DNA of 64,000 nucleotides, taken from contig CAWEJF010000015.1 of the NCBI GenBank assembly GCA_963809345.1, positions 96,193 through 160,192 of the forward strand, written 5' to 3'. The notes beneath the pieces were generated by a model. It searched no databases and was not told the DNA's origin. It saw only the letters and a program-made list of their open reading frames with translations. Each line of letters opens with the position of its first letter. Within the stretch, counting starts at the first letter, position 1. Both the position numbers and the translations under genes were made by a program. This DNA comes from Candidatus Aminicenantes bacterium (GTDB lineage Bacteria > Acidobacteriota > Aminicenantia > Aminicenantales > Saccharicenantaceae). Shown in pieces: positions 4,067 through 61,256 of the stretch.

Positions 4067-4381
4067 GTTGGCCTCGACGATGTGGCCCTCCGTTGTCGTA
4101 CGGTAGACGCCGACGGGGAGCTGCTCGACGAGGGCCTTGTAGCGGTCCTCTCCATCGCGATGGGCCGAAGGAGGCCCTCCGTGCCGCGGGCGCTCTGCTG
4201 GCCTTGGACGGCTGGGGCGGATTCGGAGCGTTCATTTCGCCCATATTTAGCAAAGACGCCGGGAGTTGTCAAAATTCGGCTGAGCGCTGTGAAGGCGGGT
4301 GACACGCCAGGAAGAAAGGTGTAGGAATAGGGCAGAGGGCGGATGCCCTAAACGCCCCTGAGGACCCCGGCGTATTCTCCG

Positions 4382-4955: not shown

Positions 4956-5409
4956 TCGCCTCTACGCCGCCTTGCCGTTGCGGCCGTTCCGGGACTGGCT
5001 CATCCGGGCGCACATGGAGAGGTGCCCCCGCTGCCAGGCCGGGCTCTTGAGCCGCGAGGAGGCCAAGGACCTCCTGGTCGGTCCCGATCAGGTGGGCGGC
5101 GCCGACGCTCTTTGGCGGCGGATCTCGGGAGAGGCCGGCAGGGTCGCGGCCGTTCCTGGACCGGCGCCGGCGCGCGGGATCCTGGCTTGGCGTTGGGCCT
5201 CCGCCGCAGCGATGGCCGCCGTTATCGCCTTGACCGGCTTCTGGCTCCTCCGTGAGGTCGAGCGGCCAGGGTTCGATGCGAATGCCATCGCGCCGGCCGA
5301 GCGCTTCCAGATCGATTACGTCAACGTGGGCGGCGAGCCCGCCCGTACATTCGTCTATCAGCCCCAGGGGACGGACACCGTCTTCGTCTGGGCTTCGAAA
5401 ACTCCTTAA
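4933..5409 (+). CDS. zinc-binding (ZAS-type) membrane anti-sigma factor
   Basis: MPCCKTVDRL...AHMERCPRCQ gives H-x3-C-x2-C. One TM segment (WRWASAAAMAAVIALTGFWLL). Overlaps the end of the sigma gene. Confidence 0.75.
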   Translation: MPCCKTVDRLYAALPLRPFRDWLIRAHMERCPRCQAGLLSREEAKDLLVGPDQVGGADALWRRISGEAGRVAAVPGPAPARGILAWRWASAAAMAAVIALTGFWLLREVERPGFDANAIAPAERFQIDYVNVGGEPARTFVYQPQGTDTVFVWASKTP

Positions 5410-5422
5410 GAGGAGGGGTGAT

Positions 5423-7099
5423 ATGAAAAAGAACCTTAGACTGTTTGTGGCGGTAGTTCTGGCGGGATTGGCCATGGTCGCTCTGGCCTCGGCCGGCGAC
5501 GATGCCGTCCAGGCGGCAAAGACCACGGCCGCGGCCTTCGAGCTGCAGATGAGGATCCTGCAGGGCGGCCGGGAGAAACCGTACATCCCCAGCCGCCCCG
5601 TGACCTCGTCGTACCTCGAGTTTCTGACGTTCGCCAATTTCGAGGACGAGGCGAACGTGGCCACCGACGAACAGATCAAGAAGGTCTTCAATCTCACGGA
5701 CATCGGCCTCCTGACCGAAGCCACCCTGGTCTGGGAGAAGGGGACCACCGGCAGGGCCTTCCACATGTTCCGCATCAACGGGCAGGAATACATGGTCATG
5801 GTCACGCCGGGCCGCCTGCCCGAGCGCAACCACTTCCATATTGAGGTCTTCGAACAGAGCGCCTTGAAAAAAGCCAGCCTTATCGACACGGAATTCTCTC
5901 TGCCCGAGAAGAGCGCGGCTGTCTTCGGCTTCGAGGACAGCCAGCTCAAATCTTATTTCATCACGCTGAGAGTGGCGCGCTGGCTCGGCGAGCCGGCCGC
6001 CGCAGGACAGGCGGCGGGTAGCGTCGCCGGCGGGGTCGTCCCCGGCGTGCTAAAGACCGGCGAGAAGGTCACGCCGCCCAAGCTCATCAAGCAGGTCCAG
6101 CCGGTCTATCCGGACGAGGCGAAGAAGGCCGGAGTCGAAGGCGTCGTCATCATGGAAGCGACGACTGACGCCTACGGCCGGATCGCCTCCGTCAAGGTCC
6201 TCCGGGGCATTCCCGCCCTGGATCAGGCGGCCATGGACGCCCTCCAACAGTGGGTCTATGAGCCCATGATCATCAACGGCAAGCCTCAGCCGGTCGTCTT
6301 CACGGTGACCATGCGATTCCAGCTGGACGATAAGAAGAAGCCTCAAGTCAGCGGCGCGGTCGGAGGGGTGGTTGGCGGCGTTGAAGGCGGGGTCAGCGGA
6401 GGCGTCCAGGGCGGTGTCGAGGGCGGCGTCGCCGGTGGCGTTCCCGGCGGAGTCGCAGGAGCCCAGGATCTCAAGAAGTTCGAAGGAGACGCCGCCCGGG
6501 CCGTTGGTGACATCCAGCCGCCCAAGCTTATCAAGCAGGTCGACCCCATCTATCCAACGGAAGCCAGCAAGGCCGGCGTCGAAGGCATCGTCATCCTCGA
6601 AGCCAAGGCCGACGAACAGGGAAATGTCATCGACGCCCGCATCCTGCGCTCCATCCCCGCCCTCGATAAGGCGGCCATGGACGCCGTCAAGCAATGGAAG
6701 TATGAGCCCCTCGTCATCGACGGCAAACCCCACAAGGTGCTTTTCACCGTCACGGTCCGCTTTGCGCTCAAAGAGGGGGACAGGGCGAAGCTGCTCGAAA
6801 AGTTCGCCCAAGGCGCGGTCAAGGCCGAAGGCGACATCAACCCCCCCAAGCTCATCAAGGAAGTCGCCCCCGTCTATCCCGAAGCGGCCCGGTCCGCAGG
6901 CGTCCAGGGAGTTGTCATCCTGAGCGTCAGGAGCGACGAATCCGGCCGGGTCCAGGACACTATGGTCTTACGGTCGATCCCTCTCCTCGACCAGGCGGCC
7001 ATCGACTCCGTCCGGCAGTGGGTCTATGAGCCGATGATCATCGACGGCAAGGCCGTGCCCGTCGTTTTCACCGTGACGGTCCGTTTCCAGCTCAAGTAG
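5423..7099 (+). CDS. secreted protein with unknown N-terminal domain and three tandem TonB C-terminal domains
   Basis: AGGAGG at 5411-5416, then ATG 5423. Signal peptide MKKNLRLFVAVVLAGLAMVALASA. Three copies of PPKLIK(Q/E)V.P.YP...GV.G.V......D..G.V.......SIP.LD.AA.D.V.QW.YEP....GK...V.FTVT.RF. Confidence 0.85.
   Translation: MKKNLRLFVAVVLAGLAMVALASAGDDAVQAAKTTAAAFELQMRILQGGREKPYIPSRPVTSSYLEFLTFANFEDEANVATDEQIKKVFNLTDIGLLTEATLVWEKGTTGRAFHMFRINGQEYMVMVTPGRLPERNHFHIEVFEQSALKKASLIDTEFSLPEKSAAVFGFEDSQLKSYFITLRVARWLGEPAAAGQAAGSVAGGVVPGVLKTGEKVTPPKLIKQVQPVYPDEAKKAGVEGVVIMEATTDAYGRIASVKVLRGIPALDQAAMDALQQWVYEPMIINGKPQPVVFTVTMRFQLDDKKKPQVSGAVGGVVGGVEGGVSGGVQGGVEGGVAGGVPGGVAGAQDLKKFEGDAARAVGDIQPPKLIKQVDPIYPTEASKAGVEGIVILEAKADEQGNVIDARILRSIPALDKAAMDAVKQWKYEPLVIDGKPHKVLFTVTVRFALKEGDRAKLLEKFAQGAVKAEGDINPPKLIKEVAPVYPEAARSAGVQGVVILSVRSDESGRVQDTMVLRSIPLLDQAAIDSVRQWVYEPMIIDGKAVPVVFTVTVRFQLK
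6068..7096 (+). repeat. three tandem TonB_C-encoding repeats (about 6068-6330, 6512-6772, 6836-7096), with a (GGVx)n linker at about 6343-6470
   Basis: The repeat units align by eye at protein level. The linker reads VSGAVGGVVGGVEGGVSGGVQGGVEGGVAGGVPGGVAG. Confidence 0.8.
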
Positions 7100-37697: not shown

Positions 37698-37943
37698 TCA
37701 CATCTTGGCGATGGAGGCGGCCTCGTCGCTCGCTTCCTCTTCGGACTCGAGCTCGATGCCGAGGAGTTTGGCCGTGCCCTCGTAGACCATCTTGAGCGAC
37801 TTCTTGGAGTCCTGCAGCTCGGCCAAACGCTTGCGGACCTTCTGGAGCTCCTTCTCGACTTCCTCGTCGAGATGTTCCAGCTGGTGCTTCACCTCGGCCA
37901 TCGTCTTCTTGTAGAGATCTTCTTGTTCTTTGCTGAGACCCAT
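37698..37943 (-). CDS. small acidic coiled-coil protein, unknown function
   Basis: 81-aa ORF with K/E heptad-like pattern, directly downstream of the TonB_C gene. Confidence 0.5.
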   Translation of the reverse strand: MGLSKEQEDLYKKTMAEVKHQLEHLDEEVEKELQKVRKRLAELQDSKKSLKMVYEGTAKLLGIELESEEEASDEAASIAKM

Positions 37944-37953
37944 TTGCGGCTCC

Positions 37954-39234
37954 TTATTCCATCTTATTGATCAAGTTCGGGTCGGCCTTGAATGCGATGA
38001 CGAAGGATTTCCAGACCTTGACGGCCACGCCATTCTTGCGGGCCGGCTGGAACTTCCACTTTTTCACGGCGGTCTCGGCGGCCCGGGCGAGGCCCTTGTC
38101 ATCCTGGATTCCCTTGAGGATGCCCGTGTCGATGACGTTGCCCTTCTCGTCGATGAGGGCGTTGACCGTGATCTGGCCGCCGATCCCGAGGCGCTGGGCG
38201 GTCTGCGGATAGACGGGATTGGAGGACTTGACGAGCTGGGGCTGTTCGGTGGCGGAGCCGAGCTCGACGAGGTCGCCCTCGTTGACGGGGGCGGTGACCG
38301 GCGCCGGGCCGGGGGCCGCGGCCGTGGTGTTTGCGGCGGTCCCGGGGTCGGTGGCCGCGTTTTGGGCCGGATCCGTGACGGTCTCCGTGACCACCGGCGG
38401 GGACACGCTTTCGGTCTTCACGGGCGGCGGGTCGGCCTGGGCGGTGTTCGTCCCCGGTTCCGTCCGGGCTTCATCCGTTCCGCCGGCGGGCCGCTGGGCG
38501 GAGGTCAGGGGCAGGGTGGCCGCGGCCGTTCCCGTGGGCAGGATCGCGTCAGCGCCAGCCGGGCCGGGATCGGCCCGCTTGGCCTGCGGCTTTTGTTTGA
38601 CGGGCGCGGGCTTGACCTCGGACGCGGGAGCTTCCTCGATCGGCCGGGACGGCGTGTTCACGTCGGTCACTGTCTGGGTCGCGGCCTGCTGGCTCTCCAT
38701 CGCCGGCGGCGTGTGCTTCGGCCGCAGAAGGATGAAGCCGACGGCGGCGACGGCGACGACGCCGATACCGACGAAGGCGATCTTGGGGAAGCCCTTCTTT
38801 TCCTTGGGCTCATCGAAATCCTGGAAGATATCGGTCGAGGCGATCGCCTCGGCTTCGCGGCTCTTGGCCTCGTGACGCGCGGGTTCCTGTCTCGACGGCT
38901 CGTGCCGGGCCGGCTCGGGTTCCGCAGGCGCCGTCCGCTCCATTTTCTCGGCGGGCTGTGGCGGCTTCGGCGGCGCGACGTGGACCGGATGTATCGGGGA
39001 GGTTTGGACCCTCGGTTTTACCGCCGGGGCTTCGGGCTTCGGCTTCTCGGGAGTGAAGAAGGGCGAGACGTCCGACCCGGGATCTCCCGGGGTGAGCGTG
39101 TTCTTCATGTCCTTCTCGATGGACCCGGTGAAGAACGTGTCGATCCGGGGCGCCGGCGGGGGTGTCGGCTTCGGTTCGGGCTCCGCCGCCGGCCAAGACG
39201 TCGGGGCGGGCTTGGCCTTGACAGGCGGCGCCAA
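37954..39234 (-). CDS. Pro-rich, single-TM protein with TonB C-terminal domain (probably the C-terminal part of a longer fusion)
   Basis: TM IAFVGIGVVAVAAVGFILL. C-terminal NPVYPQTAQRLGIGGQITVNALIDEKGNV...AVKKWKFQPA...GV (TonB_C). The frame stays open upstream of the TTG at 39234, with coding-like sequence and no start codon. Confidence 0.8.
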   Translation of the reverse strand: MAPPVKAKPAPTSWPAAEPEPKPTPPPAPRIDTFFTGSIEKDMKNTLTPGDPGSDVSPFFTPEKPKPEAPAVKPRVQTSPIHPVHVAPPKPPQPAEKMERTAPAEPEPARHEPSRQEPARHEAKSREAEAIASTDIFQDFDEPKEKKGFPKIAFVGIGVVAVAAVGFILLRPKHTPPAMESQQAATQTVTDVNTPSRPIEEAPASEVKPAPVKQKPQAKRADPGPAGADAILPTGTAAATLPLTSAQRPAGGTDEARTEPGTNTAQADPPPVKTESVSPPVVTETVTDPAQNAATDPGTAANTTAAAPGPAPVTAPVNEGDLVELGSATEQPQLVKSSNPVYPQTAQRLGIGGQITVNALIDEKGNVIDTGILKGIQDDKGLARAAETAVKKWKFQPARKNGVAVKVWKSFVIAFKADPNLINKME

Positions 39235-39296
39235 GGGCGCCGTCTTGGGGACCTTGATCTTTTCTTTATCGAGCTCGAAGCCGGCCAGGGCGGACT

Positions 39297-40034
39297 TCAG
39301 AAATTGGTCGATGTCCGCCTTGCCGTTCCCGTTGCCGTTTCCGTTTTCCCTCCGGCCGGCTTCGGCTCGACGGCCTTGGGCCTCGTGGTCTCGACGATGA
39401 CCTTATTGAGGAGCTCGTCTGCGATCGATTCGAGACGCGCTTCGGCGGTCGTCTCGTAGCGGGCCGGCGCGGGCTTGTGGCTCTTCGGGATCTCCCGGCT
39501 CAGCCGGTCGAGATCGGCCGGCAGGGAGAAGATATCGTCGTCGGACTTGGGCTTCTCGCGCTTCCGGGGCTCGGCGGGCGACATCTCGGCGCGAAGCTCC
39601 CGTGACAGGCTGGGCGGCTCGGGCGCCGCGACAGGCTCCGGTTCGATCGGCCGCGGCGCGGGCTTGCCGAGCACGGCTTCGATCGAGGCCAGCAGCTCGG
39701 CCATCTTGAGCGGCTTCTCGAAATATTCGGAAGCGCCGTAGGTCCGCAGCGCCTCGGTCCGGTAGACGCGGTCCTTGTAGACGCCGGTCATGATAAAGAC
39801 GGTGGCCTGGGAGTTCCGCTCCGACGTGATCCTCTGACAGAGCTCGAAGCCGTGGACCTTGGGCAGCATGGCCTCCATGAGGACCAGGTCCGGCGATTCC
39901 TTGTTGTACTTGTCCCAGCCCGCCTGGCCGTCGGCCGCGGTCACGATCTGATAGCCCTCCTTGGACAGGATCCCTTGGAGAGCGGCCAACGAGCCTTGGT
40001 CGTAATCGATGACGAGGATCTTTTTTGCGGCCAT
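39297..40034 (-). CDS. response-regulator receiver domain protein with Glu at the phospho-acceptor position
   Basis: KILVIDYD...PDLVLMEAMLP...VFIMTG...YFEKP aligns to CheY with D57 replaced by E and D13 by Y. Long Pro-rich tail. Confidence 0.85.
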   Translation of the reverse strand: MAAKKILVIDYDQGSLAALQGILSKEGYQIVTAADGQAGWDKYNKESPDLVLMEAMLPKVHGFELCQRITSERNSQATVFIMTGVYKDRVYRTEALRTYGASEYFEKPLKMAELLASIEAVLGKPAPRPIEPEPVAAPEPPSLSRELRAEMSPAEPRKREKPKSDDDIFSLPADLDRLSREIPKSHKPAPARYETTAEARLESIADELLNKVIVETTRPKAVEPKPAGGKTETATGTARRTSTNF

Positions 40035-40152
40035 GTTTAAGGCTTCCTATCGCCGCGGAGCTCCTCTCGGCCGCAAACCGTCCGGCCGGAAGGATGTTCA
40101 GACGGCGATGTCGTTCGCATGCCCTATTTTTTCCTCACCCCCCGATAGGGTC

Positions 40153-40189
40153 AATCACCTCTTTGGGTGATTCAGGGGATGATATCCCC
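40153..40189. promoter_or_regulatory. dyads AATCACC-N6-GGTGATT and GGGGAT-GAT-ATCCCC
   Basis: 40153-40159 pairs with 40166-40172, and 40175-40180 with 40184-40189. Located in the 357-nt non-coding region between the receiver gene and the C1 peptidase gene. Related to the motif at 17860-17924. Confidence 0.35.
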
Positions 40190-42066: not shown

Positions 42067-43806
42067 CTACTTCGACGCCCTGTCCTCGATCAGGATCTGC
42101 AGCGTCTCGAGCTCGTCCGCGTCGAACCAGATCTTTCCGCACGACAGGCACTTGTCGACCGGCACGAAGTACTGGTAGTTGTACGGCCGGGCGGTCATCC
42201 GGTAACCGCAGTTCGGGCAGGGCACATCCGCGGCCAGGGCCGATTCGATCTTTTGGCGCCTGAGCGGGTTGCGGACGGCCTTCTCGCGAAAGAGGCGGGC
42301 TTTCTCTCGCAACGGCGCGGAGAAATCGACTTCACGGCGGGCCACGATCCTGTCGACCGACGCCGCGTCGACCAGCCGGCCCCCGCAGCGCCCGCAGACG
42401 CCGATGCCCACCCCTTCGTAGAACGCTTCGCCGAGCGGGACGCGGCAGCGCGGGCAGAGGTTCTGCCGCCCCGGGGCGAGGGGTCTCTTGCGGGCCAGGT
42501 TGTGGAGGGCGATGCGGATCTGGGGGAACTCGCGGGCCCGGGCCTCGACGCCCTCCTGTGTGTTCCTGACCCGCATGATGGCCGAGAACCGCGGCCGGCA
42601 CAGGAGCTCGGCGACCGTGAACGGCCCTTCCCAGGGCCTGTCGGTCCCGGCCGCGAGCATCCAGACGCGGGCCTCCTCTCCGGCCGGCGGCGCGCCGGAC
42701 GTCTCTTCCGTGGGGGGGAAGAGCTCGAGCTGTTCCTTCCGCAATTCTTCGTAAGAGTGGAGGACGCCCCGGGCCGCGTCGCGCGCCCGCTCCTCTTCCC
42801 ACACGGCCTCGATGATGGCCTGGGGTTTCTTGCGGACCATGGCCGCCAGCGCGTCGATCCGCTTCATGAGGGGTGGGTGGGAGCTGAAGATCCGGCCCAC
42901 GAGGTTGTCCGGCGTGTCCCGCGAATCGGGACGGACGATGAAGAGGGGCGCATAGCTCAACGAAAAATCGCCGACGAACGAGTTCTTGACGTAGGCTTTA
43001 TAGATGATGCGGGCCAGCGCTTCGGGGGCGCGCGCGAGCTCGACGGCCGCGGCGTCGGCTAGGAGCTCCCGCTCCCTGCTGACGAGCATGCTCAGCAGGC
43101 GCATGACCAGGGCCGACACGGCCACGGCGCCGTAGAAGAGGACGGGCGGGAAGCTGGGGCCTCTCCGGCTCCCCTCGTAGCCCGCGTCGTCGTCCGCCGC
43201 TGAGCTGAGGGCGTCCTTGAACCTTTCGAAAAGGTTGGCCAGGGAGCAGACGAGCGTCAGGTAGAACGCGTCGCCCCGGGCGATATGGGCCAGCTCATGG
43301 GCGGCCACGGCCTGGAGCTCGTCGCGCGTGCCCTCCGCCAGAAGCCCCTCGGTGACGGCCACGGCGGGGGTGCCGTCCTCCTCGATGACGGCCAGCGAGT
43401 TGACGGCGAATGACGGCAGGACGTAGGCGTTGACGCGCGGCAGGCCGGCCGCGATGCGGATCTCATCGAGGGTGTTGAGGAACTGGACGTGATAGCGGTC
43501 CGCCGCGTCCGGGGTCGCGGCCTGGAGACGCCGGAGGATGACGCGCGGGCCGTTCTTGCGGGCGTCCTGGAAATGGAAGAAGGCGACGATCAAGGCGACG
43601 GCCAGGTCGACGAGAAGGAAGCGGGGCCAGAATCCCGGAGAGGCTATGAGCCCGGTGCCGAGAAAGAGGCCGAAGGTGGCCAGAAAGGCCAGGCCGATGA
43701 GCCCGAGGCCGAGGAAGTGAAAGGCGAGGACAGCGGCGAAGAGGGGCAGGCTCTTGCGACGCTGGCGCTCCTGGATCTCGTAAAAGTCACGCGTCCGTGT
43801 GGCCAT
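42067..43806 (-). CDS. M48 (HtpX-like) membrane metalloprotease with GYF_2-like segment and two C-terminal zinc ribbons
   Basis: HELAH motif after N-terminal TM helices. WMLAAGTDRPWEGPFTVAELL. CPRC...CGRCGG and CPNC...CLSCGKIWFDADELE. Confidence 0.85.
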   Translation of the reverse strand: MATRTRDFYEIQERQRRKSLPLFAAVLAFHFLGLGLIGLAFLATFGLFLGTGLIASPGFWPRFLLVDLAVALIVAFFHFQDARKNGPRVILRRLQAATPDAADRYHVQFLNTLDEIRIAAGLPRVNAYVLPSFAVNSLAVIEEDGTPAVAVTEGLLAEGTRDELQAVAAHELAHIARGDAFYLTLVCSLANLFERFKDALSSAADDDAGYEGSRRGPSFPPVLFYGAVAVSALVMRLLSMLVSRERELLADAAAVELARAPEALARIIYKAYVKNSFVGDFSLSYAPLFIVRPDSRDTPDNLVGRIFSSHPPLMKRIDALAAMVRKKPQAIIEAVWEEERARDAARGVLHSYEELRKEQLELFPPTEETSGAPPAGEEARVWMLAAGTDRPWEGPFTVAELLCRPRFSAIMRVRNTQEGVEARAREFPQIRIALHNLARKRPLAPGRQNLCPRCRVPLGEAFYEGVGIGVCGRCGGRLVDAASVDRIVARREVDFSAPLREKARLFREKAVRNPLRRQKIESALAADVPCPNCGYRMTARPYNYQYFVPVDKCLSCGKIWFDADELETLQILIEDRASK

Positions 43807-43885
43807 GGCGTCGGGGACATCATAAACGAACCCTCACGGCCCGGTCAATGGAAGGAAATGGGGACGCTCCTATTTTCCGGACGGG

Positions 43886-46300
43886 TCACTTCTTGTCGAT
43901 CTCGGCCCGAAGGCCGTCGACGAGCTTCTTGACCAGCTCCTCATCCACTCCCTTTTGGCCTTTTGGAGCGGCGATCTTAAAGGTCATCGTGCCGCTGTCT
44001 GCTTCGAATTCCTGCTCGACGAGGGTGAAGCCCTCGGGCAATTCATTTTTGAGCTTTGACAGCGCCCGCTCGTAGGCTTCCCGCCCGAGGCCCTTCTCGC
44101 CGATGACGATCGTGATCGCGCCCTCGTCCTTGGACATGACCTTAACGTAAGCTCTCGCTTCGTCGGCTTTCTTGTCCTTCTCCGCATCCTTCTCCGCGAC
44201 CCAAACGGCGACCTGGCCCTCGGACTCGTCTCCGCCGACCCTCTTGACGACGGCGACTTGGCCCGGGACCTTCTCGAGCTTGAGCTGGAGCTCCTGGAGC
44301 TTATCCTCCTTCGCCGCGAGCTCGGCTTCGAGCTTCTTCAGGGATTCCTCGAGGGCGGAGAGGTCCATCTTCTTGGCCTTGATCGCCTGGACCTGTTCCT
44401 GGAGGGCATGGACTTTTTCCAGCATCTCGCCGTCCTTGGCGATCGTCCATGCGTAGGACCTGCCCCCGGCGCCTTTGGCCACCCACCGTGCGCCTTCCTT
44501 CATGTCCTTCCGCGTCTTGACGATGACCCGGGAGCGTTCCTCGCCCCCTTCCGCCTTTTCGGCGAGCTTGATCTTTTCGTAGCCGATCTCAGGGTCGCCC
44601 GTTCTGTAGAAGACGATCGTCTCGCCCTCATCGCCCCCTTCCTTGGCGATCTTCAGCCTCATGGGCTTGCCGATATCCAGGGGCTTGCCCTCTTTTATGA
44701 CTTGGAGATCGCCGCCATTGATCTCGATGCGGACGGGTTCGCCTTTGAGAACCTGGACGTCCTTTCCATCGACGGTCAGGACGAGGGCTTCCCCGTCCTT
44801 GCTCTTCGTGATCGTCAGGGGCTTTTCCAGGACGAGCTTCTTGACCTGGTCTCCCTCGGTGATGATCACCTCGATCGTCTTGCCTTCGGCGCCAACGGGC
44901 GTGATGACGAACGTCTTTGTGACCGCGGCCTTTTCCTTGGCGGCCTTCTCCGCTTCGATAGCCTTCTCGACCTTCTTGGCTTTCTCGGCCGCCTTGGCCT
45001 TTTCCTGTTCCGTTTCCTGGACGACGGCCTTCTCGGCTTGGGTCAGCCCGGCGCCGGGAGCGGCGATCGCGAAGCTCGCGGGGGCCGGAAGCGCCGTTTC
45101 AGCGAGGACCGGCGTCCCTTCTTTGGCCTCGGTCCCGGAGACGGGACGGGCCGTTCCGACGAGGGCCACGGCCAGAACGAGGGCCAGGGCCAGCATGATC
45201 TTGGTTTTCATCTTGACCTCCATGAATGTCAATTTCTGTTTGAGGATGGCCGCCAGGCGATCCTGGAACGATGACTTTCCCAGCATTCCGAGCAGGGCCG
45301 CCGAAGGATTCCAACGGAACCCGGCCGCACGCCGGAAAGCCAGCAACGTGGCGGCGTAGGTCGACGGCCTGATCCCCGCGCGCAGGACCAGCTCGTCGCA
45401 GGCGATCTCCTGTTCCTTCTGGAGCTCGCGGTAGACGACCCAACAGAGCGGATTCCACCAGAATACGGCCAGGCTGGCCCGGACGAGCAGCATGACCAGA
45501 AAATCAGCCCGCTTGACGTGGGACAGCTCGTGGAAGAGGGCCGAGGAGCGCTCGTCGTCGGTCCAGGAGTCCGATCCGTCCGGAAGAAGGACGACCGGCC
45601 TGCGCCAGCCCCACGTCAGCGGCACGAGGACCTGCGGATGGCTCTTGAGCCGGACATTGCGGCGGAGCGAGACGAGCGTGAGGAAACGATCGAGAAGAAG
45701 ACGCCATGAGGCGCTGTCGAGAGGGGTCCCTTCTGTTGTCAGCCGGGACGCCCCGGCCAACCCGAAAGCGAGCCTCAGGAGGAGCGCCGCCAAACCGGCC
45801 GACCAGAGGAGTGCGACGACGAGATCAGCGGCCTGAGAGCCGGAGCGGCGGGCCGCCTGGCCGGGCCCCAAAGGGCCCAAAAGCAGGGGGGTGGACGAGC
45901 CGCCGACGGCTTGGTCATCCGACGATGAGGTGAGGTAATACGATACCGCCCCGGAAGGATCGACGCCGGCTCCACCCTTGTTCTCGACCGTCACGGCGAT
46001 GCCCCCCGCTTTAGCCCTCGCGGTCTGCGCGGCTGAGGCAGCCGGCGCGCTCGCCGTGCGGGGCGCGGGGGCCGCCAACCATGCCGGCAGGAGAGGCGAT
46101 TTCCATCCGACCGGAGCGACCGTGAGCAGCGGAAGGAGGAGGAGCCCGATGAGGGCGGACGAGAGGATGAAATGGCGGATGGCCGCGGGACGCCTCTTCG
46201 CGGCCGCGGCGGCCAGAAGGGCCAGGGTCAGGACGACCGTCGTCTTCAGGAAACATCCGGCCAGGAAGCCGAGCGTTCCCGCGGCGGCCGATCCGGGCAT
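43886..46300 (-). CDS. BlaR1/MecR1-type M56 signal-transducing peptidase with non-canonical K/E-rich extracytoplasmic domain
   Basis: FHELSHVKRADF (HExxH). A TM lies after the protease domain (KTKIMLALALVLAVALVG). This is followed by about 420 aa of lysine/glutamate-rich, partly coiled-coil sequence. Confidence 0.85.
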   Translation of the reverse strand: MPGSAAAGTLGFLAGCFLKTTVVLTLALLAAAAAKRRPAAIRHFILSSALIGLLLLPLLTVAPVGWKSPLLPAWLAAPAPRTASAPAASAAQTARAKAGGIAVTVENKGGAGVDPSGAVSYYLTSSSDDQAVGGSSTPLLLGPLGPGQAARRSGSQAADLVVALLWSAGLAALLLRLAFGLAGASRLTTEGTPLDSASWRLLLDRFLTLVSLRRNVRLKSHPQVLVPLTWGWRRPVVLLPDGSDSWTDDERSSALFHELSHVKRADFLVMLLVRASLAVFWWNPLCWVVYRELQKEQEIACDELVLRAGIRPSTYAATLLAFRRAAGFRWNPSAALLGMLGKSSFQDRLAAILKQKLTFMEVKMKTKIMLALALVLAVALVGTARPVSGTEAKEGTPVLAETALPAPASFAIAAPGAGLTQAEKAVVQETEQEKAKAAEKAKKVEKAIEAEKAAKEKAAVTKTFVITPVGAEGKTIEVIITEGDQVKKLVLEKPLTITKSKDGEALVLTVDGKDVQVLKGEPVRIEINGGDLQVIKEGKPLDIGKPMRLKIAKEGGDEGETIVFYRTGDPEIGYEKIKLAEKAEGGEERSRVIVKTRKDMKEGARWVAKGAGGRSYAWTIAKDGEMLEKVHALQEQVQAIKAKKMDLSALEESLKKLEAELAAKEDKLQELQLKLEKVPGQVAVVKRVGGDESEGQVAVWVAEKDAEKDKKADEARAYVKVMSKDEGAITIVIGEKGLGREAYERALSKLKNELPEGFTLVEQEFEADSGTMTFKIAAPKGQKGVDEELVKKLVDGLRAEIDKK

Positions 46301-51828: not shown

Positions 51829-51888
51829 ATCGTATAACCGTTGCCCTGAGGTTAGCGTTCGCCATAGCACTCGGGTAGAATAAGCGGC

Positions 51889-54800
51889 GTGGAACGCAAG
51901 CCGCCTGTCCAGACCGGCCCCCGTGGCAGGGCCGATGCCCGTGCCCGCTTCGAGACCTGGCTGGCCGCACGGGCCCGGAACGTGCCGCGCGTCTCCTACC
52001 CGCCGGAGCTGCCCATCACCCCGCGCGCCGAAGAGATCGTGGCCGCTCTGCGCTCGCCGCGCCGCCGGGTCGTCATCATCTCGGGCGAGACGGGCTGCGG
52101 CAAGAGCACGCAGATCCCGAAGATGTGCCTCGAGGCGGGGAGGGGCGTCGCCGGCCGCATCGGGGTCACCCAGCCGCGGCGCCTCGCCGCGATGACCATC
52201 GCCTCGCGCATCGCCGAAGAGCTCGGCGAGCCGCTCGGGCGGTCCGTCGGCTACAAGATCCGCTTTCAGGACCGGACCTCGCGCGACGGCTACATCAAGA
52301 TCATGACCGACGGCATCCTCCTCGCCGAGACGCAGGGCGACCACGGCCTCTACGAGTACGACACCATCATCATCGACGAGGCCCACGAGCGCTCGCTCAA
52401 CATCGACTTCCTCCTCGGCATCATGCGCCGGCTCCTCGACGAGCGGCCCGACCTCAAGCTCGTCATCACCTCGGCGACGCTCGACACGGAGAAGTTCTCC
52501 AAGGCCTTCAAGAACGCCCCGATCATCGAGGTCAGCGGGCGCGTCTATCCGGTCGAGGTCGACTACCGCGTGCCCGACAAGGAGGAGGCCGAGGACAAGG
52601 ACTATGTCGATCAGGCCGTCGAGGCGATCGAGTACCTGCGGCGCGAGAAGCCGCCTGGCGACATCCTCGTCTTCATGCCGACCGAGCAGGACATCCTCGA
52701 GACCTGCCGCATGCTCGAGGGGCGCAAGTGGCCGCTGGTGAAGGTGCTGCCGCTCTTCTCGCGCCTGCCGGCGGGCCAGCAGCGCCTCGTCTACACCGTG
52801 ACCGTGCCGAAGATCGTCGTGGCCACGAACGTCGCCGAGACCTCGCTGACCATCCCCGGCATCCGCTATGTCGTGGACACGGGTGTGGCGCGGATCGCCC
52901 AGTACCAGCCCGGGACGCGCATCAACAGCCTGCCCATCTCGCCCATCTCGCGGGCCTCGGCCGATCAGCGCAAGGGGCGGTGCGGCCGGGTCAAAGAAGG
53001 GCTGTGCGTCCGCCTTTATAGCCAGGTCGATTACGAGTCGCGCGACGAGTTCACCCAGCCGGAGATCCTGCGGTCCGACCTGGCCGAGGTCATCCTGCGC
53101 ATGACCGACCTCGGATTGGGCGACCCGCTCCTGTTCCCGTTCATCGACAAGCCCGCCTCCAAGGCCGTCCACGACGGCTACGACACCCTCGTCGAGCTCG
53201 GCGCCGTCCGCAAATCGGGGGCGCCAATACCAATTCCCCAATTCCCGCTGGGAGCTGACGGAGAACGGCCGGGCCATGGCCCGGATGCAGGTCGACCCGC
53301 GGCTGTCGCGCATGCTCATCGAGGCCCGGACCGAAAATTGCCTCTCCGAGGTGTCGGTGCTGGCCGCGGCGCTCAGCATCCGCGATCCGCGCGAGCGCCC
53401 GCCGGACAAGGCCCAGCAGGCCGACGCGGTCCATGCCGTCTTCAAGCACCCCGACTCGGATTTTCTCGTCCTGCTCAACATCTGGAACCGCTATCACGGC
53501 GATTTCGAGAAGCTCGGCTCGCTCGTCCAGAAGAGGCGCTTCTGCCACGAGAACTTCCTGTCGTTCCCGCGTATGCGCGAGTGGGTCTACCTCCACGCGG
53601 AACTTGAGAACGCCCTCAGGGAATTGGCGCGCGGCCGCATCATGTCCCAGCCGGCAATCCTGCATCAGGATATCTCGCCGGCGCTCTATGGCGCGATCCA
53701 CCGATCCGTCCTCAGCGGATATCTCTCGAACATCGCCGCGCACAAGGAAAAGAACGTCTATTCCGGTGCCAAGAACCGCGAGGTCACGCTATGGCCCGGC
53801 TCGGTCCTCTTTGCCAAGGCCGCTCCCTGGATCGTCTCGACCGAGGTCGTCCGGACTTCGCGTCTTTTCGCCCGGACCGCCGCCCGCATCGATCCCGCCT
53901 GGCTCGAGCGCCTGGGCGGCCCGCTCTGCAAGCGCTCCTACTCCGACGCCGCCTGGGACCGCGCCCGTGGCGAGGTCACGGCCAAAGAACGCGTCACGCT
54001 CTTCGGGCTCGAGATCGTCCGCGAGCGCCGCGTCTCCTATGCCCGAGTCAACCCGGCCGAAGCCCATGAGATCTTCGTCATGAACGGCCTCGTCGAGGGC
54101 GAGATCGACGACCCGCCGCCCTTCCTCGTCCACAACCTCGAGCTCCAGCGCAAGGTCGAGGCCATGGAGGAGAAGCTCCGCCGCCGCGACATCCTCGTCG
54201 CCGAAGGCGAGATCGCCAAGTTCTATTCGGAGAAGCTCCCGGGCATCCACGACATCCGCACCCTCCGCAAGCTCCTCAAGGACGTCCACGACCGGGGCGG
54301 CGCCGACTCCTTCCTGCGCCTCGCCGAGGACGCGCTCCTCAACTACCACCCGGACGAAGCCGCCGTGGCCGCCTTCCCCGATTCCGTAGAGATCGCCGGC
54401 CGGCCATTCCGTGCGGTCTACCATTTCGCCCCCGGCGAGGAGGACGACGGCGTCACGCTGACCGTGCCGCCCGAGCTCCTGAGCGCCATCCCGGTCGGGC
54501 GCCTCGAGTGGGGCGTCGCCGGGCAGTACCAGGACAAGATCGCCGCGCTCATCAAAGGCCTGCCGAAGCGCTACCGCAAGCTCCTCGTCCCGGCAGGGGA
54601 GAAGGCCGAGGAGATCGCCCGCGAGATGCCCAAGGCCCCCGAGGAAGTGCCGCTCTTCAAGGCCGTCGCCGAGTTCGTCAAGCGCCGTTACAGCGTCGAT
54701 ATCCCGGCCCGCGAATGGGCCCTGGCCGACGTCCCGAAGCACCTGCGCATGCGCGTAGCCGTCGTCGACCCGGGGACGGGACGCGTCATCGACGCCGGGC

Positions 54801-55945
54801 GCGACGTCGAGCTTCTGCGGAAAAAGATCGGCGCCGCCGACGAGGCCCCGTCCAAGGTCGAATCGCCGGCGTGGCAGGAAGCGCGGCGCGCCTGGGATAA
54901 GTCGGGCCTGACGGAATGGACGTTCGGCGATCTGCCCGAGAAGATCGCGGTCGGCACCTCGCTCACGGCCTACCCCGCCCTCGTCGTCGAAGAAAAGAGG
55001 GTGTCAGACCTACCTTTTACCCAAAACCGGGTAAAAGGTAGGTCTGACACCCTCTTGCCCGCCCTTGATTCGGTCGCCGTACGGCTCTTCCCAACGCGGG
55101 CCGAGGCTGCGGCCGTCGCACAAAGCCGGCGTCCGCTGGCTCCTGATGCGCAAGTTCGTAAAAGACCTGGCTTTCGTCCGCCGCTACCACAAGATCCCGG
55201 CCGATCTTGAGCGGGCGGCGCTCTATTTCGGCGGGCGGGACGCCGTCGAGCGGGCCATCGAGGAAGCCCTGGCCCGTAACGTCTTCGAGCGCAATATCCG
55301 CACCGAAGCCGAGTACAAGGCGTATGAAGCCGAGGTCGGCCGGACGCTCTTCGAGAAAGGACATGCCCTGACCCAGACGGTCGTCAAGATCGTCGAGCTC
55401 CATGCTAAGGTCCGCGCCGATCTGGGGAAGGAGAGCGGCGGGGAGGGGCGGCAGCTTCGGGTGGCGCGGCGACGGCACGCGCCGGCAAGCCCGCAAAGAC
55501 CCTCAGCTTGTATGAGCTCAGCAAGCTCAAAGAGCGGGTCAAGCCCGAGTACCTCGACGCCATTGCCGCCGACCTCGAGCGCCTCGTCCCGAAGGACTTC
55601 CTCGCCGGCTATCCCATCGACCGGCTCGTCCGCATCCCGCGCTATCTCGAGGGCCTCAAGATCCGGCTCGAACGCGCCCGGATCGCTCCCGCAAAAGATA
55701 AGCTGAAGGCCGCCCAGATCGAACCCTACGTCTTCGAGCTGACTCGTCTCGAAGGCGAGCTCAGAAAAGGGGGACAAGGTATCGCGTCCCCGATTTCGGT
55801 GGAGAAGCGCGCCGCCATCGACGAGCTCCGCTGGATGATCGAGGAGTTCAAGCTGGCCCTCTTCGCCCCCGAGATCAAGACCGCCTTCCCCATCTCCGCC
55901 GTCCGCCTGGCCCGCAAGATCGCCGAGATCGACGTCCTCGTCTAA
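51889..55945 (+). CDS. hrpA: ATP-dependent RNA helicase HrpA (DEAH), reading frame broken three times and carrying a palindromic insertion
   Basis: GETGCGKST, IIIDEAHERS, ITSATLD, VATNVAETSLTIPG, QRKGRCGR, then HA2/OB and a DUF3418-like tail. The sequence is spread over ORFs 51889..53607, 53276..55210, 55065..55706 (middle part) and 55508..55945. Confidence 0.9.
54995..55056. repeat. perfect inverted repeat, 28-bp arms and 6-nt loop, inside hrpA
   Basis: AAGAGGGTGTCAGACCTACCTTTTACCC (54995-55022) is the exact reverse complement of 55029-55056. Loop is AAAACC. Confidence 0.95.
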
Positions 55946-56056: not shown

Positions 56057-56254
56057 GTGAGGACGAACATCGTGATCGATGACGCGCTCGTCGAGGAGGC
56101 CATGGCCCTTTCGAAGCTCAAGACGAAAAGGGACGTCGTGCAAAGGGCCCTTGAGGCGTATGTCCGCGTCCTCAAGAAAAAGGACCTTCGCATACTCAGG
56201 GGCAAAATCCGGCTCGCCGAGGGCTACGACTACAAGAAGCTGAGGGCGCGGTGA
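56057..56254 (+). CDS. vapB: type II antitoxin, VapB (DUF2191-like) family
   Basis: MRTNIVIDDALVEEAMALSKLKTKRDVVQRALEAYV. GTG 56057 preceded by GAGG (the ORF opens at 56048). Confidence 0.75.
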   Translation: MRTNIVIDDALVEEAMALSKLKTKRDVVQRALEAYVRVLKKKDLRILRGKIRLAEGYDYKKLRAR

Positions 56255-56649
56255 TCCTGGTCGATTCCTCGGTTCTGATCGACTTCCTGGAAGGGCGCGA
56301 GAACGCCCCCGTCAACCGCTTCATCGAGGTCCTCGACCACGACATCCCCTTTGGCATAAGCCCGCTCACGATCCTCGAGGTCCTTCAGGGCGCGGCGACG
56401 GAGAAGGATTTCGCGACCTTGCGCGAATATCTTGGCAGCCAGACGGTCTACGACCTAACCGGGGGCCTCGAGTCGTACGCCGAGGCCGCGAAGATATTCT
56501 TCGCCCTGCGAAAGAAAGGGATGTCCGTGGGGAGCTCGATGGACTGCCTGATCGCCCAGACGGCCATCGAGCATGCCCTATCTCTCCTTCACAACGATTC
56601 CGATTTCGACCGGATAGCGAAGGTCTCATCCCTTAAGATCTACGTGTAA
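56251..56649 (+). CDS. vapC: PIN-domain toxin VapC
   Basis: MILVDSSVLIDFL... PIN acidic-residue pattern. GTGA overlap with the antitoxin. Confidence 0.85.
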   Translation: MILVDSSVLIDFLEGRENAPVNRFIEVLDHDIPFGISPLTILEVLQGAATEKDFATLREYLGSQTVYDLTGGLESYAEAAKIFFALRKKGMSVGSSMDCLIAQTAIEHALSLLHNDSDFDRIAKVSSLKIYV

Positions 56650-56666
56650 GATCTGCCTGGACCCCA

Positions 56667-57071
56667 TCAATCGCCGCCGACGAGTTCATAACCGAGCTCC
56701 TGGAAGTGCGGGTCGAAGGCGAAGGCCGTCAGGACTCCCGTCCGCCGCATGACCTCGAAGCTCGCGCAATCGACGAGGCTCAGCGCCCGCCGCCCTGCGG
56801 CCAGGTGGGCCCCGACCGCGGCTTCGTGAACATCCTTCGTCACCCAGACGATGCGCAGGACGGGTACGATATCGCGTTCGAACACGCCCGCGGCTTCCAT
56901 GCCGATCCGCCTCGTCAACACGGCCGACGTTTCGACGAGGACATAGTTATGCGAGATGAGGGTGTTTTCGCCGTTCAGCAGGTCTGCCCAGCGCTTCTTG
57001 GCCGCGGCGTGCCGCTCGTCGCTCCGGTCAAGGACGGCCAGCAAGGCGCTCGTATCGACGAAGACGTTCAT
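56667..57071 (-). CDS. vapC: PIN-domain toxin VapC
   Basis: MNVFVDTSALLAVLD...SLVDCASFEVM. Confidence 0.85.
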   Translation of the reverse strand: MNVFVDTSALLAVLDRSDERHAAAKKRWADLLNGENTLISHNYVLVETSAVLTRRIGMEAAGVFERDIVPVLRIVWVTKDVHEAAVGAHLAAGRRALSLVDCASFEVMRRTGVLTAFAFDPHFQELGYELVGGD

Positions 57072-57463
57072 CGCGTGCCCCCGTTCTTTTCCGGGCTGCC
57101 CGATGGCTTTAGAGCCCGGTCCGCCTCGGGCTTTTCCGCCAAGTACCGGTCGTGGCCCACCGATAGGTCCGGTGCTCCGGATGCGAATCGCCCCGCCGCT
57201 TCGACCGCCCGGCGTCTCAATTCCCGCGCGTCGGCAATCTGAAAACTGGCGTGGGGACCGTAGGAATCCCTGTCCTCGGCTACGCGTCCAATATCCGCCC
57301 CGGTTCCCGCCTCACGGCGCGCTTCGCCTTGCGCCTCACGGAATTCCCGCACGGCCTTCCTGATGACTTCGGCGCTCGACATCCGATGACGCCTTCCGAA
57401 TCCGTCGAGCCATTTCTTTTCGTCCGCCGGAATGGATATGATCGTCCTCGTCATTCGAGCCAT
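57068..57463 (-). CDS. ribbon-helix-helix (CopG-like) antitoxin
   Basis: GAGGAGGA then ATG 57463. MARMTRTIISIPADEKKWLDGFGRRHRMSSAEVIRKAV. Overlaps the toxin start. Confidence 0.75.
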   Translation of the reverse strand: MARMTRTIISIPADEKKWLDGFGRRHRMSSAEVIRKAVREFREAQGEARREAGTGADIGRVAEDRDSYGPHASFQIADARELRRRAVEAAGRFASGAPDLSVGHDRYLAEKPEADRALKPSGSPEKNGGTR

Positions 57464-57535
57464 CAGCGTCCTCCTCGATATATGACTATTATATATCACA
57501 TATTGATATCAAATCAAGTCTTCAGCCCAATCTCC

Positions 57536-57564
57536 TTGACATATATAGTCTAATAGACTATATA
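57536..57564 (+). promoter_or_regulatory. promoter TTGACA-N17-TATATA containing palindrome TATATAGTC-TAATA-GACTATATA
   Basis: TTGACA 57536-57541 and -10 at 57559-57564. 9-bp arms at 57542-57550 and 57556-57564. Confidence 0.45.
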
Positions 57565-57583
57565 AATTCATGAGGCATCCTTC

Positions 57584-57859
57584 ATGGAGATCATTCCCCT
57601 GACCACGGCCAAAGCGAGATTATCGGAGATCATCGCTCGTCTTATTCATCGAAAAGAAGCCGTCGTGATCACCCGGAAGAGGGTCCCCGTTGCCGCCATA
57701 GTCCCCTATGAAGAATGGGCGAAAAAGGAGGCCTCCGATAGAGAAGGACTGGCCGCCGCCGCCGGGGCCTTGGCCGACTTCGATAGCGCCATCGACGAAA
57801 TGGTCGAATCGATCTACACCGCCCGGGAGAAGGCCAAAGACCGGAAGGTCGTTCTCTGA
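57584..57859 (+). CDS. Phd/YefM family antitoxin
   Basis: MEIIPLTTAKARLSEIIARLIHRKEAVVITRKRVPVAAIVPYEEW. Confidence 0.8.
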   Translation: MEIIPLTTAKARLSEIIARLIHRKEAVVITRKRVPVAAIVPYEEWAKKEASDREGLAAAAGALADFDSAIDEMVESIYTAREKAKDRKVVL

Positions 57860-58263
57860 TGTACCTGTTCGATACCGACGTCCTGAGCCGGGTCGTCAAG
57901 GCCGCTCCGCCCCGGGCCCTGGTCGAACGCCTTTCGGGGATCCCGCGCGCCCTTCAATTCACGACGTCGATCAATGCCGCCGAGCTCGTTTATGGCGCGT
58001 GCCGGACCGCGCGTCGCGATGAGCTCATCCGGGCCTTTGAAGAGCTTGTCCTGCCGCGCCTGACCGTGCTGCCCTTCGATCTCGAAAGCGCCCGCGTTTT
58101 CGGACGGCTGAAAGCCTCGCTAGAGAAGCGAGGCCTCCCCCGGAGCGAACCGGACCTGCGCATCGCCGCGATCGCCCTGCAGCATGGGCTCTCGGTCGTC
58201 ACTGGGAACGTCCGGCATTTCGAGGGCATCCCGGGTCTTGCCGTCGAAAATTGGCTGGAGTGA
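57859..58263 (+). CDS. vapC: PIN-domain toxin VapC
   Basis: MYLFDTDVLS...DLRIAAIALQHGLSVVTGNVRHF. TGATG overlap with the antitoxin. Confidence 0.85.
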   Translation: MYLFDTDVLSRVVKAAPPRALVERLSGIPRALQFTTSINAAELVYGACRTARRDELIRAFEELVLPRLTVLPFDLESARVFGRLKASLEKRGLPRSEPDLRIAAIALQHGLSVVTGNVRHFEGIPGLAVENWLE

Positions 58264-60307: not shown

Positions 60308-61256
60308 GATGCCGCCCGCGCGCCTCAAGTGGTTCGATTATTACAGTCGCTGTGAGGATGCCCGGCTGACCTGCCGCCATTTTCGGCATCTCTCCCCAGA
60401 CCTTCTACCGCTGGAAGAGCCGGTTGGACCCCTATGACCTGACCACCCTGGAGGCCTCGAGCCGGAGGCCGCTCCATGTCCGCCAGCCCCTGATCCCGGC
60501 CCCGGTCCAGGACCGGATCCTGGCCCTTCGGACGAAGTATCCCCGCTGGGAAGGACAAGCTGGTGGTCCTCTTGAGGAGGGAAGGGATCCAAGTCTCCAC
60601 CTCGACGGTCGGCCGGGTCCTGAAGCGGCTCAAGGACCGTGGGCTGCTGGTTGAGCCGGTCAACGTTCGCCAGGCCAAAGAAGCCCGGAAACGCCGGCGG
60701 AGGCCGCGCTATGCCATCCGTATGCCGAAGGATACGTGATCAAGGCTCCCGGAGACCTGGTCCAGGTCGATACCCTTCAGATCCACCTCCGTGGCAATGA
60801 CCGCCGCTGGCAGTTCAGCTCCCGAGACCTGATCTCCCGCTGGGATGTCTCTCAAGCCTTTCGAAACGCTTCAAGCTTCGCCGCGGCACTGTTCCTGGAA
60901 TATATGGAGCGCAAGTTCCCCTTCCCCGTCCGGGCCATCCAGATCGACGGCGGCTCGGAGTTTAAGAAGCACTTCGAGGAGGCTTGCCGGATCCGGGGAT
61001 TCGGCTGTTCATCATCCTGCCCCGCACGCCGAAGCTGCAGGGCTATGTGGAGAGCGCCAACAAGACCCATCGGGTGGAGTTTTACGAAGTCGAGGATATC
61101 GCCTGGAAAATGGAGGACCACAATAAGCAACTGGAAGAGTGGGACCGGACGTACAATACCATCCGGCCTCACCAATCACTTGATTACAAGACGCCGGCTG
61201 AGTACTATCGTCGCTGGAAGAAAAACCAGAAGGCCCTGGTGTCACGGATGTCCTGA
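60308..61256 (+). mobile_element. IS481-like (rve/DDE) transposase gene, frame broken about four times; element ends not identified
   Basis: The conceptual join reads MPPARLKWFDYYSRCEDARLTCRHFGISPQTFYRWK...YPRWGKDKLVVLLRREGIQVSTSTVGRVLK...DLVQVDT...IQIDGGSEF...YVESANKTHRVEF...RPHQSLDYKTPAEYY. The pieces lie in ORFs 60424..60654, 60736..61299 and 60984..61256 plus unlisted frames. Confidence 0.8.

Follow-up and report, generated by a model that had tools for sequence, protein, structure and literature searches.

The 64,000-nucleotide stretch analysed here (the window; contig CAWEJF010000015.1 of the Candidatus Aminicenantes assembly GCA_963809345.1) poses the question of whether two neighbouring open reading frames (ORFs) on its minus strand are two genes or the separated parts of one. 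The first, an ATG-initiated ORF at 40034..39297, encodes 245 amino acids (aa) and carries a domain of the response-regulator receiver type; the second, listed with a TTG start at 39234..37954, encodes 426 aa and ends in a TonB C-terminal (TonB_C) domain. Judged by sequence comparison, these ORFs are the halves of one gene of ~692 aa that occupies positions 37954-40034. The account developed below, in which a single gene has been split by an accidental break, is taken as a whole highly probable; the function suggested for its product, a TonB-type link across the cell envelope, is held only tentatively. The corrected annotation of the locus has one gene in place of two.

Two open reading frames, one gene

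The reading frame of the TonB_C ORF stays open for 56 codons (168 nucleotides, nt) 5' of the TTG at 39234. This upstream stretch reads ..ENGNGNGNGKADIDQFLKSALAGFELDKEKIKVPKTAP, contains no in-frame ATG, GTG or TTG and overlaps the 3' tail of the receiver ORF, as had been noted in an initial annotation of this DNA, which put its length at about 170 nt, placed a T-run at 39344-39347 and proposed that one added A would yield a protein of about 690 aa from a probable single gene. The run is present as TTTT on the plus strand (AAAA on the coding strand), and insertion of one A gives a joined product of 693 aa. Response_reg (PF00072; residues 6-118, E 1.3e-20, 74.1 bits against a gathering cut-off of 30.2) and TonB_C (PF03544; residues 606-683, E 7e-17, 62 bits) are the only Pfam domains in this product; of the NCBIfam models, tonB_Cterm scores 45.4 bits (cut-off 27.1) and otherwise only generic receiver families match, below their cut-offs. 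The parts of the gene and the site of the break are as follows.

39345..40034, minus strand: N-terminal part of the gene, from Met1 to ..VEPKPAGG(K), containing the receiver-like domain and the first piece of a cytoplasmic linker; the called ORF continues out of frame to the stop at 39297 (ORF list, colinear homologue alignment, Pfam)
39340..39352, minus strand: frame-break site, GGA GGG AAAA CGG AAA CGG on the coding strand; the A4 run at 39344-39347 (in GGGAAAACGG) opens an (AAC GGN)4 Asn-Gly repeat, and repair is by adding one A or removing two (DNA alignment with relatives L001, L002 and L005)
37954..39345, minus strand: C-terminal part of the gene, read in frame -1 with respect to the N-terminal part and extending from NGNGNGNGKADIDQF.. 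as far as the stop; encodes what is left of the cytoplasmic linker, then membrane helix, periplasmic linker and TonB_C

A search with the joined sequence, the check that the initial annotation had proposed, recovered over 100 single-ORF proteins, 650-740 aa long, in which PF00072 and PF03544 occur together. The best homologues are 71-75% identical to the query across 99-100% of its length, are labelled 'TonB family protein' of Candidatus Aminicenantes by NCBI and JGI, and align colinearly through the junction, where ..VEPKPAGG is followed directly by NGNGNGNG KADIDQFLKSALAG... By alignment, the match of the joined protein across the junction is far beyond chance. The same arrangement is seen in the DNA: all 47 metagenome loci long enough to judge (47/47) have the receiver and TonB_C in one uninterrupted ORF of 654-741 aa, the gene is a single ORF in nearly all genome loci, and it is intact as one ORF of 658-697 aa in the relatives L001, L002/L003 and L005, in which the gene order is that of the window. 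Homologues that are always two separate genes, the arrangement against which the single-gene proposal had originally been set, were not what we found.

The TTG at 39234 corresponds to an internal Leu codon in relatives, being CTG or CTC in 40/52 of them, and CTG and CTC cannot start translation. No convincing ribosome-binding site precedes this TTG in the window. An independent start for the TonB_C half at TTG 39234 was ruled out on the ground that the codon is an internal Leu codon in relatives. We therefore regard the two ORFs as one gene, because the homologues are colinear with the joined product, 47/47 informative loci have a single ORF and the listed start is an internal Leu codon.

Origin of the frame break

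At the break the window reads GCC GGA GGG AA AAC GGA AAC GGC.., and the relatives L001, L002 and L005 read, in frame, GCC GGG GGG AAC GGC AAC GGG.. or GGA GGG AAC GGC... Two repairs fit this DNA alignment equally, one of which is the single added A first suggested. If one base is missing (A5 read as A4), the product is ..AGGK-NGNG.., with an extra Lys; the homologue P0034 likewise has Lys directly before the Asn-Gly repeat. If two bases are extra (AA read as AAAA), the product ..AGG-NGNG.. (AGG-NGNGNGNG-K) has the residues of P0001, the closest intact homologue.

The break appears to be an accident that carries no recoding signal, and an indel error of the assembly is its probable cause. There are at least four other frame breaks in the same 64 kb, one in an extracytoplasmic function (ECF) sigma factor and three in an HrpA-like helicase, with homopolymer runs of 4-5 bases in each break region. 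In the ECF sigma factor (4382-4954, plus strand), Sigma70_r2 lies in the frame of the ORF at 4382-4792 and Sigma70_r4_2 (LSPRERTALCLWANEGYTAKDISQVL..) in the next frame, which ends at 4954; the break falls somewhere in 4690-4760, where there are two CCCC runs. The helicase (51868-55942, plus strand) is spread over four frame segments with contiguous Pfam coverage (DEAD/Helicase_C; HA2_C/OB_NTP_bind/DUF3418 2-343; DUF3418 356-462; DUF3418 453-581), and its breaks, near 53.25, 55.05 and 55.45 kb, are each close to G5, C4, A4 or G4 runs. At least five frame breaks in 64 kb, three of them in one otherwise full-length gene, are the usual signature of indel error, and we favour assembly error because the same window carries these further breaks. 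Since several frames are broken in this contig, its other 'split' or 'short' genes should not be taken at face value.

The distribution of other split copies was also considered. Among species-representative genomes these are only L098, L100 and L111; the break site differs in each, L100 is broken twice, and all three come from 'MFD…bin' metagenome-assembled genomes (MAGs) with contig_N (Flye-style) contig names. In L167 (ENA ERZ25039547 contig_109420), another contig_N assembly, with a neighbouring sample accession, an EF-G-like gene (2518-4599) is found in three pieces of 393, 217 and 94 aa, and the EF-G-like gene of the Illumina-type relative contig L166 is whole (695 aa). The split EF-G gene of L167 suggests indel errors in that assembly series.

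Some observations weigh against this explanation of the break. The nearest relative found has ~82% nucleotide identity, so that error and real mutation are not directly separable; the exact DNA pattern across the junction had no match in metagenome contigs, and a protein-guided metagenome scan returned nothing closer than ~75% aa identity; neither of the two ORFs had an exact database record, and the matches in genome contigs did not include the window's own genome. Errors are not dense in this part of the sequence, as each of the 12 syntenic neighbour genes in the window keeps a single frame. An error of two bases in a homopolymer is also less usual than one of a single base, yet removal of two A residues is the repair that matches P0001 exactly.

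A real and very recent frameshift is unlikely. It would leave a soluble receiver-like product of 245 aa that ends in a short out-of-frame tail, the membrane and TonB_C part being made scarcely or not at all, and it would account for a break that is present in the sequence as given, among intact neighbouring genes and at a short repeat, (AAC GGN)n after an A/G run, that is prone to replication slippage. Loss of one copy could moreover be tolerated if the two copies of the gene block in one MAG (L091 and L110) reflect true paralogy. Any such mutation would be very recent, because the 1.39 kb after the break contain no stop codon and have a nonsynonymous to synonymous substitution ratio (dN/dS) like that of intact copies: 0.37-0.49 against five relatives, with 0.32-0.56 between intact copies, so that no relaxed selection is seen 3' of the break. 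The lack of a second lesion or rate change in this part speaks against mutation, as do the downstream half, which has no usable start or ribosome-binding site, and the restriction of split copies elsewhere to one assembly series; the at least four other breaks in otherwise full-length genes also fit read errors better than five independent recent mutations. The MAG in question, MFD00905.bin.1.6, carries as L091 and L110 two copies of a block of C1 peptidase, receiver-TonB_C gene, 81-aa ORF and LysE, whose receiver-TonB_C proteins are 72% and 64% identical to that of the window; this is either true paralogy or a mixed bin.

Programmed -1 frameshifting or transcriptional slippage, which would yield a short receiver-only protein beside the full-length one, is exceedingly improbable: the downstream frame is indeed -1 and the break sits on an A run, but there is no X XXY YYZ heptamer (the zero frame is GGA GGG AAA ACG, and both tRNAs mispair at the first position after a slip), A4 does not reach the length of known transcriptional slippage sites, the 94 nt that follow show no more tendency to fold than shuffled sequences do (z = -1.1), and the shift is not conserved in homologues, the 47 informative metagenome loci all being in frame and the syntenic relatives reading GGG AAC. 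A programmed frameshift site was rejected on these grounds.

Domain organization and predicted topology

The joined protein has, from N- to C-terminus, a receiver-like domain, a disordered linker of ~290 aa with conserved motifs, one helix, a Pro/Ala-rich linker of ~165 aa and TonB_C. An AlphaFold2 model of P0001 was used for structural assignments. In this model the receiver fold is normal and the cytoplasmic region mostly disordered, with short helices at 173-180, 197-215 and 238-249; a single membrane helix at 423-441 is followed by a disordered periplasmic stretch and a confidently predicted TonB_C (predicted local distance difference test score, pLDDT, 85-94). The features assigned in the window are listed below.

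39681..40019, minus strand: receiver-like (REC) domain, residues 6-118 (Pfam, structure-based alignment, coordinates checked by translation)
39501..39539, minus strand: linker motif DDIFSLPADLDRL, a predicted short helix (173-180) in the disordered cytoplasmic linker (conservation profile, model)
39235..39345, minus strand: Asn-Gly repeat, then the amphipathic helix motif ADIDQFLKSALAGxxL and KVKVPKTAP (conservation, model helix 238-249)
39034..39105, minus strand: conserved linker motif KNTLTPGDPGSDVSPFFTPEKPKP, in which G-D-P-G-S-D and S-P-F-F do not vary among 62 family members
38725..38781, minus strand: single predicted membrane helix IAFVGIGVVAVAAVGFILL, residues 419-437 (model, hydrophobicity scan)
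38221..38724, minus strand: periplasmic Pro/Ala/Thr/Lys-rich linker of ~165 aa, predicted disordered, including the conserved KPAPVKQKxQAK..ADAILP
37987..38220, minus strand: TonB C-terminal domain, residues 606-683 (Pfam E 7e-17), with invariant P-x-Y-P (P613/Y615/P616)

The receiver-like domain has the (beta-alpha)5 fold in the model (E5-9 H13-26 E29-33 H36-46 E50-54 H61-71 E80-83 H89-99 E101-105 H111-122) and retains the conserved Thr83 of beta4 and Lys107 of beta5. Alignment to the receiver structures of PhoP, ArlR and CovR places Glu54 at the position of the phospho-acceptor Asp (PDLVLMEAMLPK vs PDLIVLDVMLPK), and in the D10-Y11-D12 sequence after beta1, Tyr11 stands in place of the second Mg-binding Asp. 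Thus, of the features of a canonical phosphorylatable receiver, the fold and the Thr/Lys pair are present and the acceptor Asp and the acidic Mg2+ pair are missing. From these residues, the domain would not be able to accept phosphate. A histidine kinase gene adjoins the gene in none of the Aminicenantes loci examined, and one follows it only in the distant locus L167. The domain is strongly conserved: column identity averages 0.92-1.0 at receiver residues 31-110 in 62 Aminicenantes sequences, and the domain is 85-96% identical within Aminicenantes even where TonB_C is 63-88% identical.

Conservation extends into the linkers. Further conserved segments are ADELLK, ADIDQFLKSALAG..KVKVPKTAP after the Asn-Gly repeat, and KNTLTPGDPGSDVSPFFTP.KPKP; the distant members L136 and L129 have a motif, IDKMLKDTL or IEKKLADTL, related to the amphipathic helix segment at 39235..39345. 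The membrane helix, which contains no His, is preceded or followed by KEKKGFPK at one end and by RPK at the other, and TonB_C matches the solved domains of TonB2 (2k9k, 1.6e-8) and TonB (6fip, 1u07). The only sensible topology is N-in/C-out, because there is no signal peptide, the N-terminal fold is cytoplasmic and the C-terminal fold periplasmic; the Lys+Arg count beside the helix is slightly higher on the N-terminal side, 3.6 vs 2.6. The layout initially proposed, a cytoplasmic receiver, one transmembrane segment and a periplasmic TonB_C, is consistent with the model.

Distribution of the receiver-TonB_C architecture

P0001 was compared with 1.84 billion representatives (50% identity), giving 170 matches at E <= 1e-30, of which the best 149 were analysed with hidden Markov models (HMMs) from an alignment built here. 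An N-terminal receiver and a C-terminal TonB_C are present in 108/149 representatives, with a hydrophobic helix between them in 106/108, and the periplasmic spacer has a median length of 151 aa across the family. Within the 108, the acceptor position is Glu in 103, Ser in 4, Ala in 1 and Asp in none; the second acidic-pocket position is Phe or Tyr in 105/108, the conserved Thr/Ser position is Thr in 99 and Ser in 9, and the Lys is kept in 106/108. The pseudo-receiver character that was first suggested for the window protein, and that Glu54 and Tyr11 bear out by alignment to solved receivers, therefore holds across the wider family. This is a large and coherent group (at least 108 clusters at 50% identity) with a clean signature, an acceptor that is never Asp.

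The family extends beyond Aminicenantes, and the names attached to a high-GC subgroup are 'Polarisedimenticolaceae' and 'Acidobacteriota'. In L129 (a Candidatus Fischerbacteria MAG, MFGW01000161.1) and in P0339, a Ser/Thr protein kinase domain lies between the receiver-like domain and the helix; these kinase-bearing long variants are ~1050-1150 aa, and the TonB_C region of L129 is partly masked. A Ser acceptor is found in L129 (LVLMSPMLPKVHGF) and in four very long representatives (~1050-1160 aa). Stand-alone small receivers with the Glu variant were also seen in Aminicenantes and Polarisedimenticolia (L128, L130, L131), and multi-TonB_C proteins occur among the database matches (e.g. P0168, P0194, P0217).

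As a sequence family, the combination of receiver and TonB_C is not new: the databases already hold hundreds of members, auto-named 'TonB family protein', to which the window adds only a broken copy. The initial view that this is not a described signalling architecture thus needs to be divided, for the proteins are common in databases under that generic name, and yet no paper was found that describes or tests them (no title or abstract describing a receiver-TonB_C protein in the full-text literature, whose coverage leaves out most subscription journals).

Genomic context

In L001, L002/L003 and L005, the order is Peptidase_C1 (opposite strand), the receiver-TonB_C gene, an 81-aa ORF, LysE, URO-D and PfkB (opposite strand). 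Two features next to the gene in the window are given here.

37698..37943, minus strand: 81-aa coiled-coil ORF, 11 nt past the stop of the gene, with AAGGAG before its start (targeted tblastn in relatives)
40126..40154, minus strand: sigma-70-like promoter match TTGACC-17-AAAAAT, ~90 nt 5' of the ATG (consensus match only)

The 81-aa ORF directly follows the gene in 76/76 Aminicenantes loci with room for it, at 73-100% identity and with LysE next, and a divergent C1 peptidase is usually upstream of the gene in this group. The small ORF is probably co-transcribed with the receiver-TonB_C gene, and its product is more conserved than most of the latter. It matches no Pfam or NCBIfam family; it has 282 homologue clusters, found only in Aminicenantes-type genomes, which are 'hypothetical protein' at NCBI and carry inconsistent automatic names at JGI (ElaB/YqjD, 'replicative DNA helicase', 'gas vesicle protein'). 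In loci beyond Aminicenantes other neighbours occur, among them a small TonB_C protein, PlsY, the EF-G-like gene and one histidine kinase. A search of the whole window against Rfam gave no match.

Other differences and gene groups in the window were recorded. The relatives L001, L002 and L005 have a Tricorn-type protease gene of ~3.3 kb (~1100 aa) between the Peptidase_M56 and Peptidase_M48 genes; these two genes are adjacent in the window (42070-46300), and no part of the window matched the Tricorn protein at E <= 1e-10. Directly behind the ECF sigma gene, at 4933-7099 on the plus strand, there is an anti-sigma-like ORF (MPCCKTVDRLY.., with a CPRCQAG motif, one hydrophobic helix and no Pfam match), and next to it is the gene of a protein, secreted or anchored, whose three TonB_C domains in tandem (Pfam E 3e-59) are separated by GGV-rich linkers. 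The regions 56251-58263 and 60494-61253 contain small ORFs that by appearance are PIN-toxin-like (MYLFDTDVLS.., VILVDSSVLIDF.., MNVFVDTSALLAV..), a Phd/YefM-like antitoxin, likewise by appearance (MEIIPLTTAKARLSEII..), and two integrase-core transposase fragments (..YNTIRPHQSLDYKTPAEYY) in different frames; GC content at third codon positions (GC3) in these toxin/transposase regions is lower than in the rest of the window.

Possible function

We tentatively propose that the protein is a regulated TonB-type connector across the cell envelope. The periplasmic TonB_C would pair with the TonB-box strand of an outer-membrane protein, and the receiver-like domain, being non-phosphorylatable, would serve as a fixed module for docking or switching. 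With the help of the linker motifs it may recruit cytoplasmic partners, in Aminicenantes probably including the 81-aa coiled-coil protein, so that envelope transport or force transmission could be controlled from, or reported to, the cytoplasm. Any motor, of the ExbB-ExbD or TolQ-TolR type, would be encoded elsewhere. A further step, that the phosphorylation-free receiver is the cytoplasmic control or read-out module of a TonB-type envelope link and gives a direct signalling line between outer membrane and cytoplasm, is more doubtful. If true, Aminicenantes, other Acidobacteriota-type lineages and Fischerbacteria would possess such a line, in some through an embedded Ser/Thr kinase, and it would be distinct from two-component phosphotransfer as well as from sigma/anti-sigma signalling at the cell surface.

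Several features weigh against a regulated connector. The membrane helix does not have the His that belongs to the SxxxH motif of TonB, conservation of the gene neighbourhood stops at Aminicenantes, and a linker that is long and disordered is poorly suited to carrying conformational signals. In addition, no MotA_ExbB or ExbD family was detected within ±6-10 kb in six relative loci or among the window ORFs scanned, which cover part of the window; tonB genes are often unlinked from exbBD.

Signalling from outside to inside is a rather unlikely alternative in which TonB_C would sense ligand-loaded outer-membrane transporters through their exposed TonB box and thereby alter clustering or cleavage of the cytoplasmic part, which would act on a cytoplasmic target with a logic like that of FecA-FecR. 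The envelope-spanning architecture with a recognised signalling fold inside is in keeping with this, and the Ser/Thr kinase domain of L129 and P0339 argues for a signalling output. Pfam and NCBIfam models, however, detect no part of DNA-binding, sigma or anti-sigma type, linkers that are disordered on either side of the membrane offer no obvious conformational route, and no conserved target gene is found nearby outside Aminicenantes.

It is improbable that the protein is a passive structural tether or a peptidoglycan or septum factor that has no outer-membrane transporter partner and uses the receiver-like domain for localization alone. Non-transport TonB-like proteins have been reported, and SjdR of Anabaena is reported to be a TonB-like protein with a structural role outside transport (PMC8262864). 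A helix without the TonB His and the missing exbBD neighbours in the loci and window ORFs scanned would suit such a role. Against it, TonB_C keeps the invariant P-x-Y-P and scores well against true TonB C-terminal domains, and the near-invariant receiver-like domain and linker motifs suggest several specific partners, beyond what anchoring needs.

Relation to characterized systems

The protein resembles TonB of the ExbB-ExbD-TonB system in its C-terminal TonB_C with P-x-Y-P, its Pro-rich periplasmic spacer, its single helix with the N-terminus inside, and the basic residues and 'FP' just before the helix. It differs from TonB in having ~415 aa of cytoplasmic sequence, where TonB has ~10 residues, and no adjoining exbB-exbD gene. 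The S-x3-H signal-anchor motif that TonB needs for coupling to ExbB/ExbD is absent from the family, since the helix has no His in or beside it in 104/108 representatives.

Pseudo-receivers provide a precedent for a receiver fold that works independently of phosphorylation, FrzS and AglZ of Myxococcus being examples. The pseudo-receiver of ShkA binds cyclic di-GMP (PMC7010744). Like these domains, the one described here would be a receiver fold without a usable phospho-acceptor that acts as a ligand- or partner-binding module; unlike them, its acceptor position is specifically Glu (103/108), its Thr and Lys are retained, and it forms part of a TonB_C protein that spans the membrane. Outside the family, the most similar receiver subtype (40-45% identity) is that of MshEN-REC-TPR proteins (Anaeromyxobacter and other Myxococcota; L133-L165, ~450-490 aa), which share the motifs ..PDLVLxxAMLPKVHGF.. 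and ..YGAxDYxEKP... In contrast to the family, L141 and L133, the two whose complete sequences were examined, retain the Asp (LVLLDAMLP) and lack both a membrane helix and TonB_C.

Cell-surface signalling of the FecR type, which operates via TonB-dependent transducers (reviewed in PMC9249621), likewise employs a single-pass inner-membrane protein to link an outer-membrane TonB-dependent protein to a cytoplasmic regulator. The present protein differs in having no anti-sigma domain or partner sigma, and its periplasmic end is TonB_C and not the FecR C-terminal domain.

The closest studied layout, and the best functional analogy, is GltJ (AgmX), which with GltG belongs to the Agl-Glt gliding machinery of Myxococcus xanthus (PMC11135422; PMC3169522). 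The cytoplasmic zinc-ribbon/linker/GYF region of GltJ binds MglA-GTP, AglZ and MglB and acts as a switch (PMC11135422). GltJ and the present protein share a regulatory region in the cytoplasm that includes a disordered linker, a single helix, a periplasmic region that is flexible, and TonB_C. In GltJ the cytoplasmic domains are ZnR and GYF, whereas here there is a receiver-like domain and no Agl/Glt genes lie near the gene; the similarity to GltJ and GltG in sequence extends to TonB_C, with no relationship shown beyond it. To date, work on TonB-type proteins that carry a regulatory region in the cytoplasm has been confined to the gliding motor of Myxococcus. The presence of another kind of cytoplasmic module on TonB_C suggests that cytoplasmic control of envelope-spanning TonB-like links may be more general, and the family offers a defined set of constructs with which to test this.

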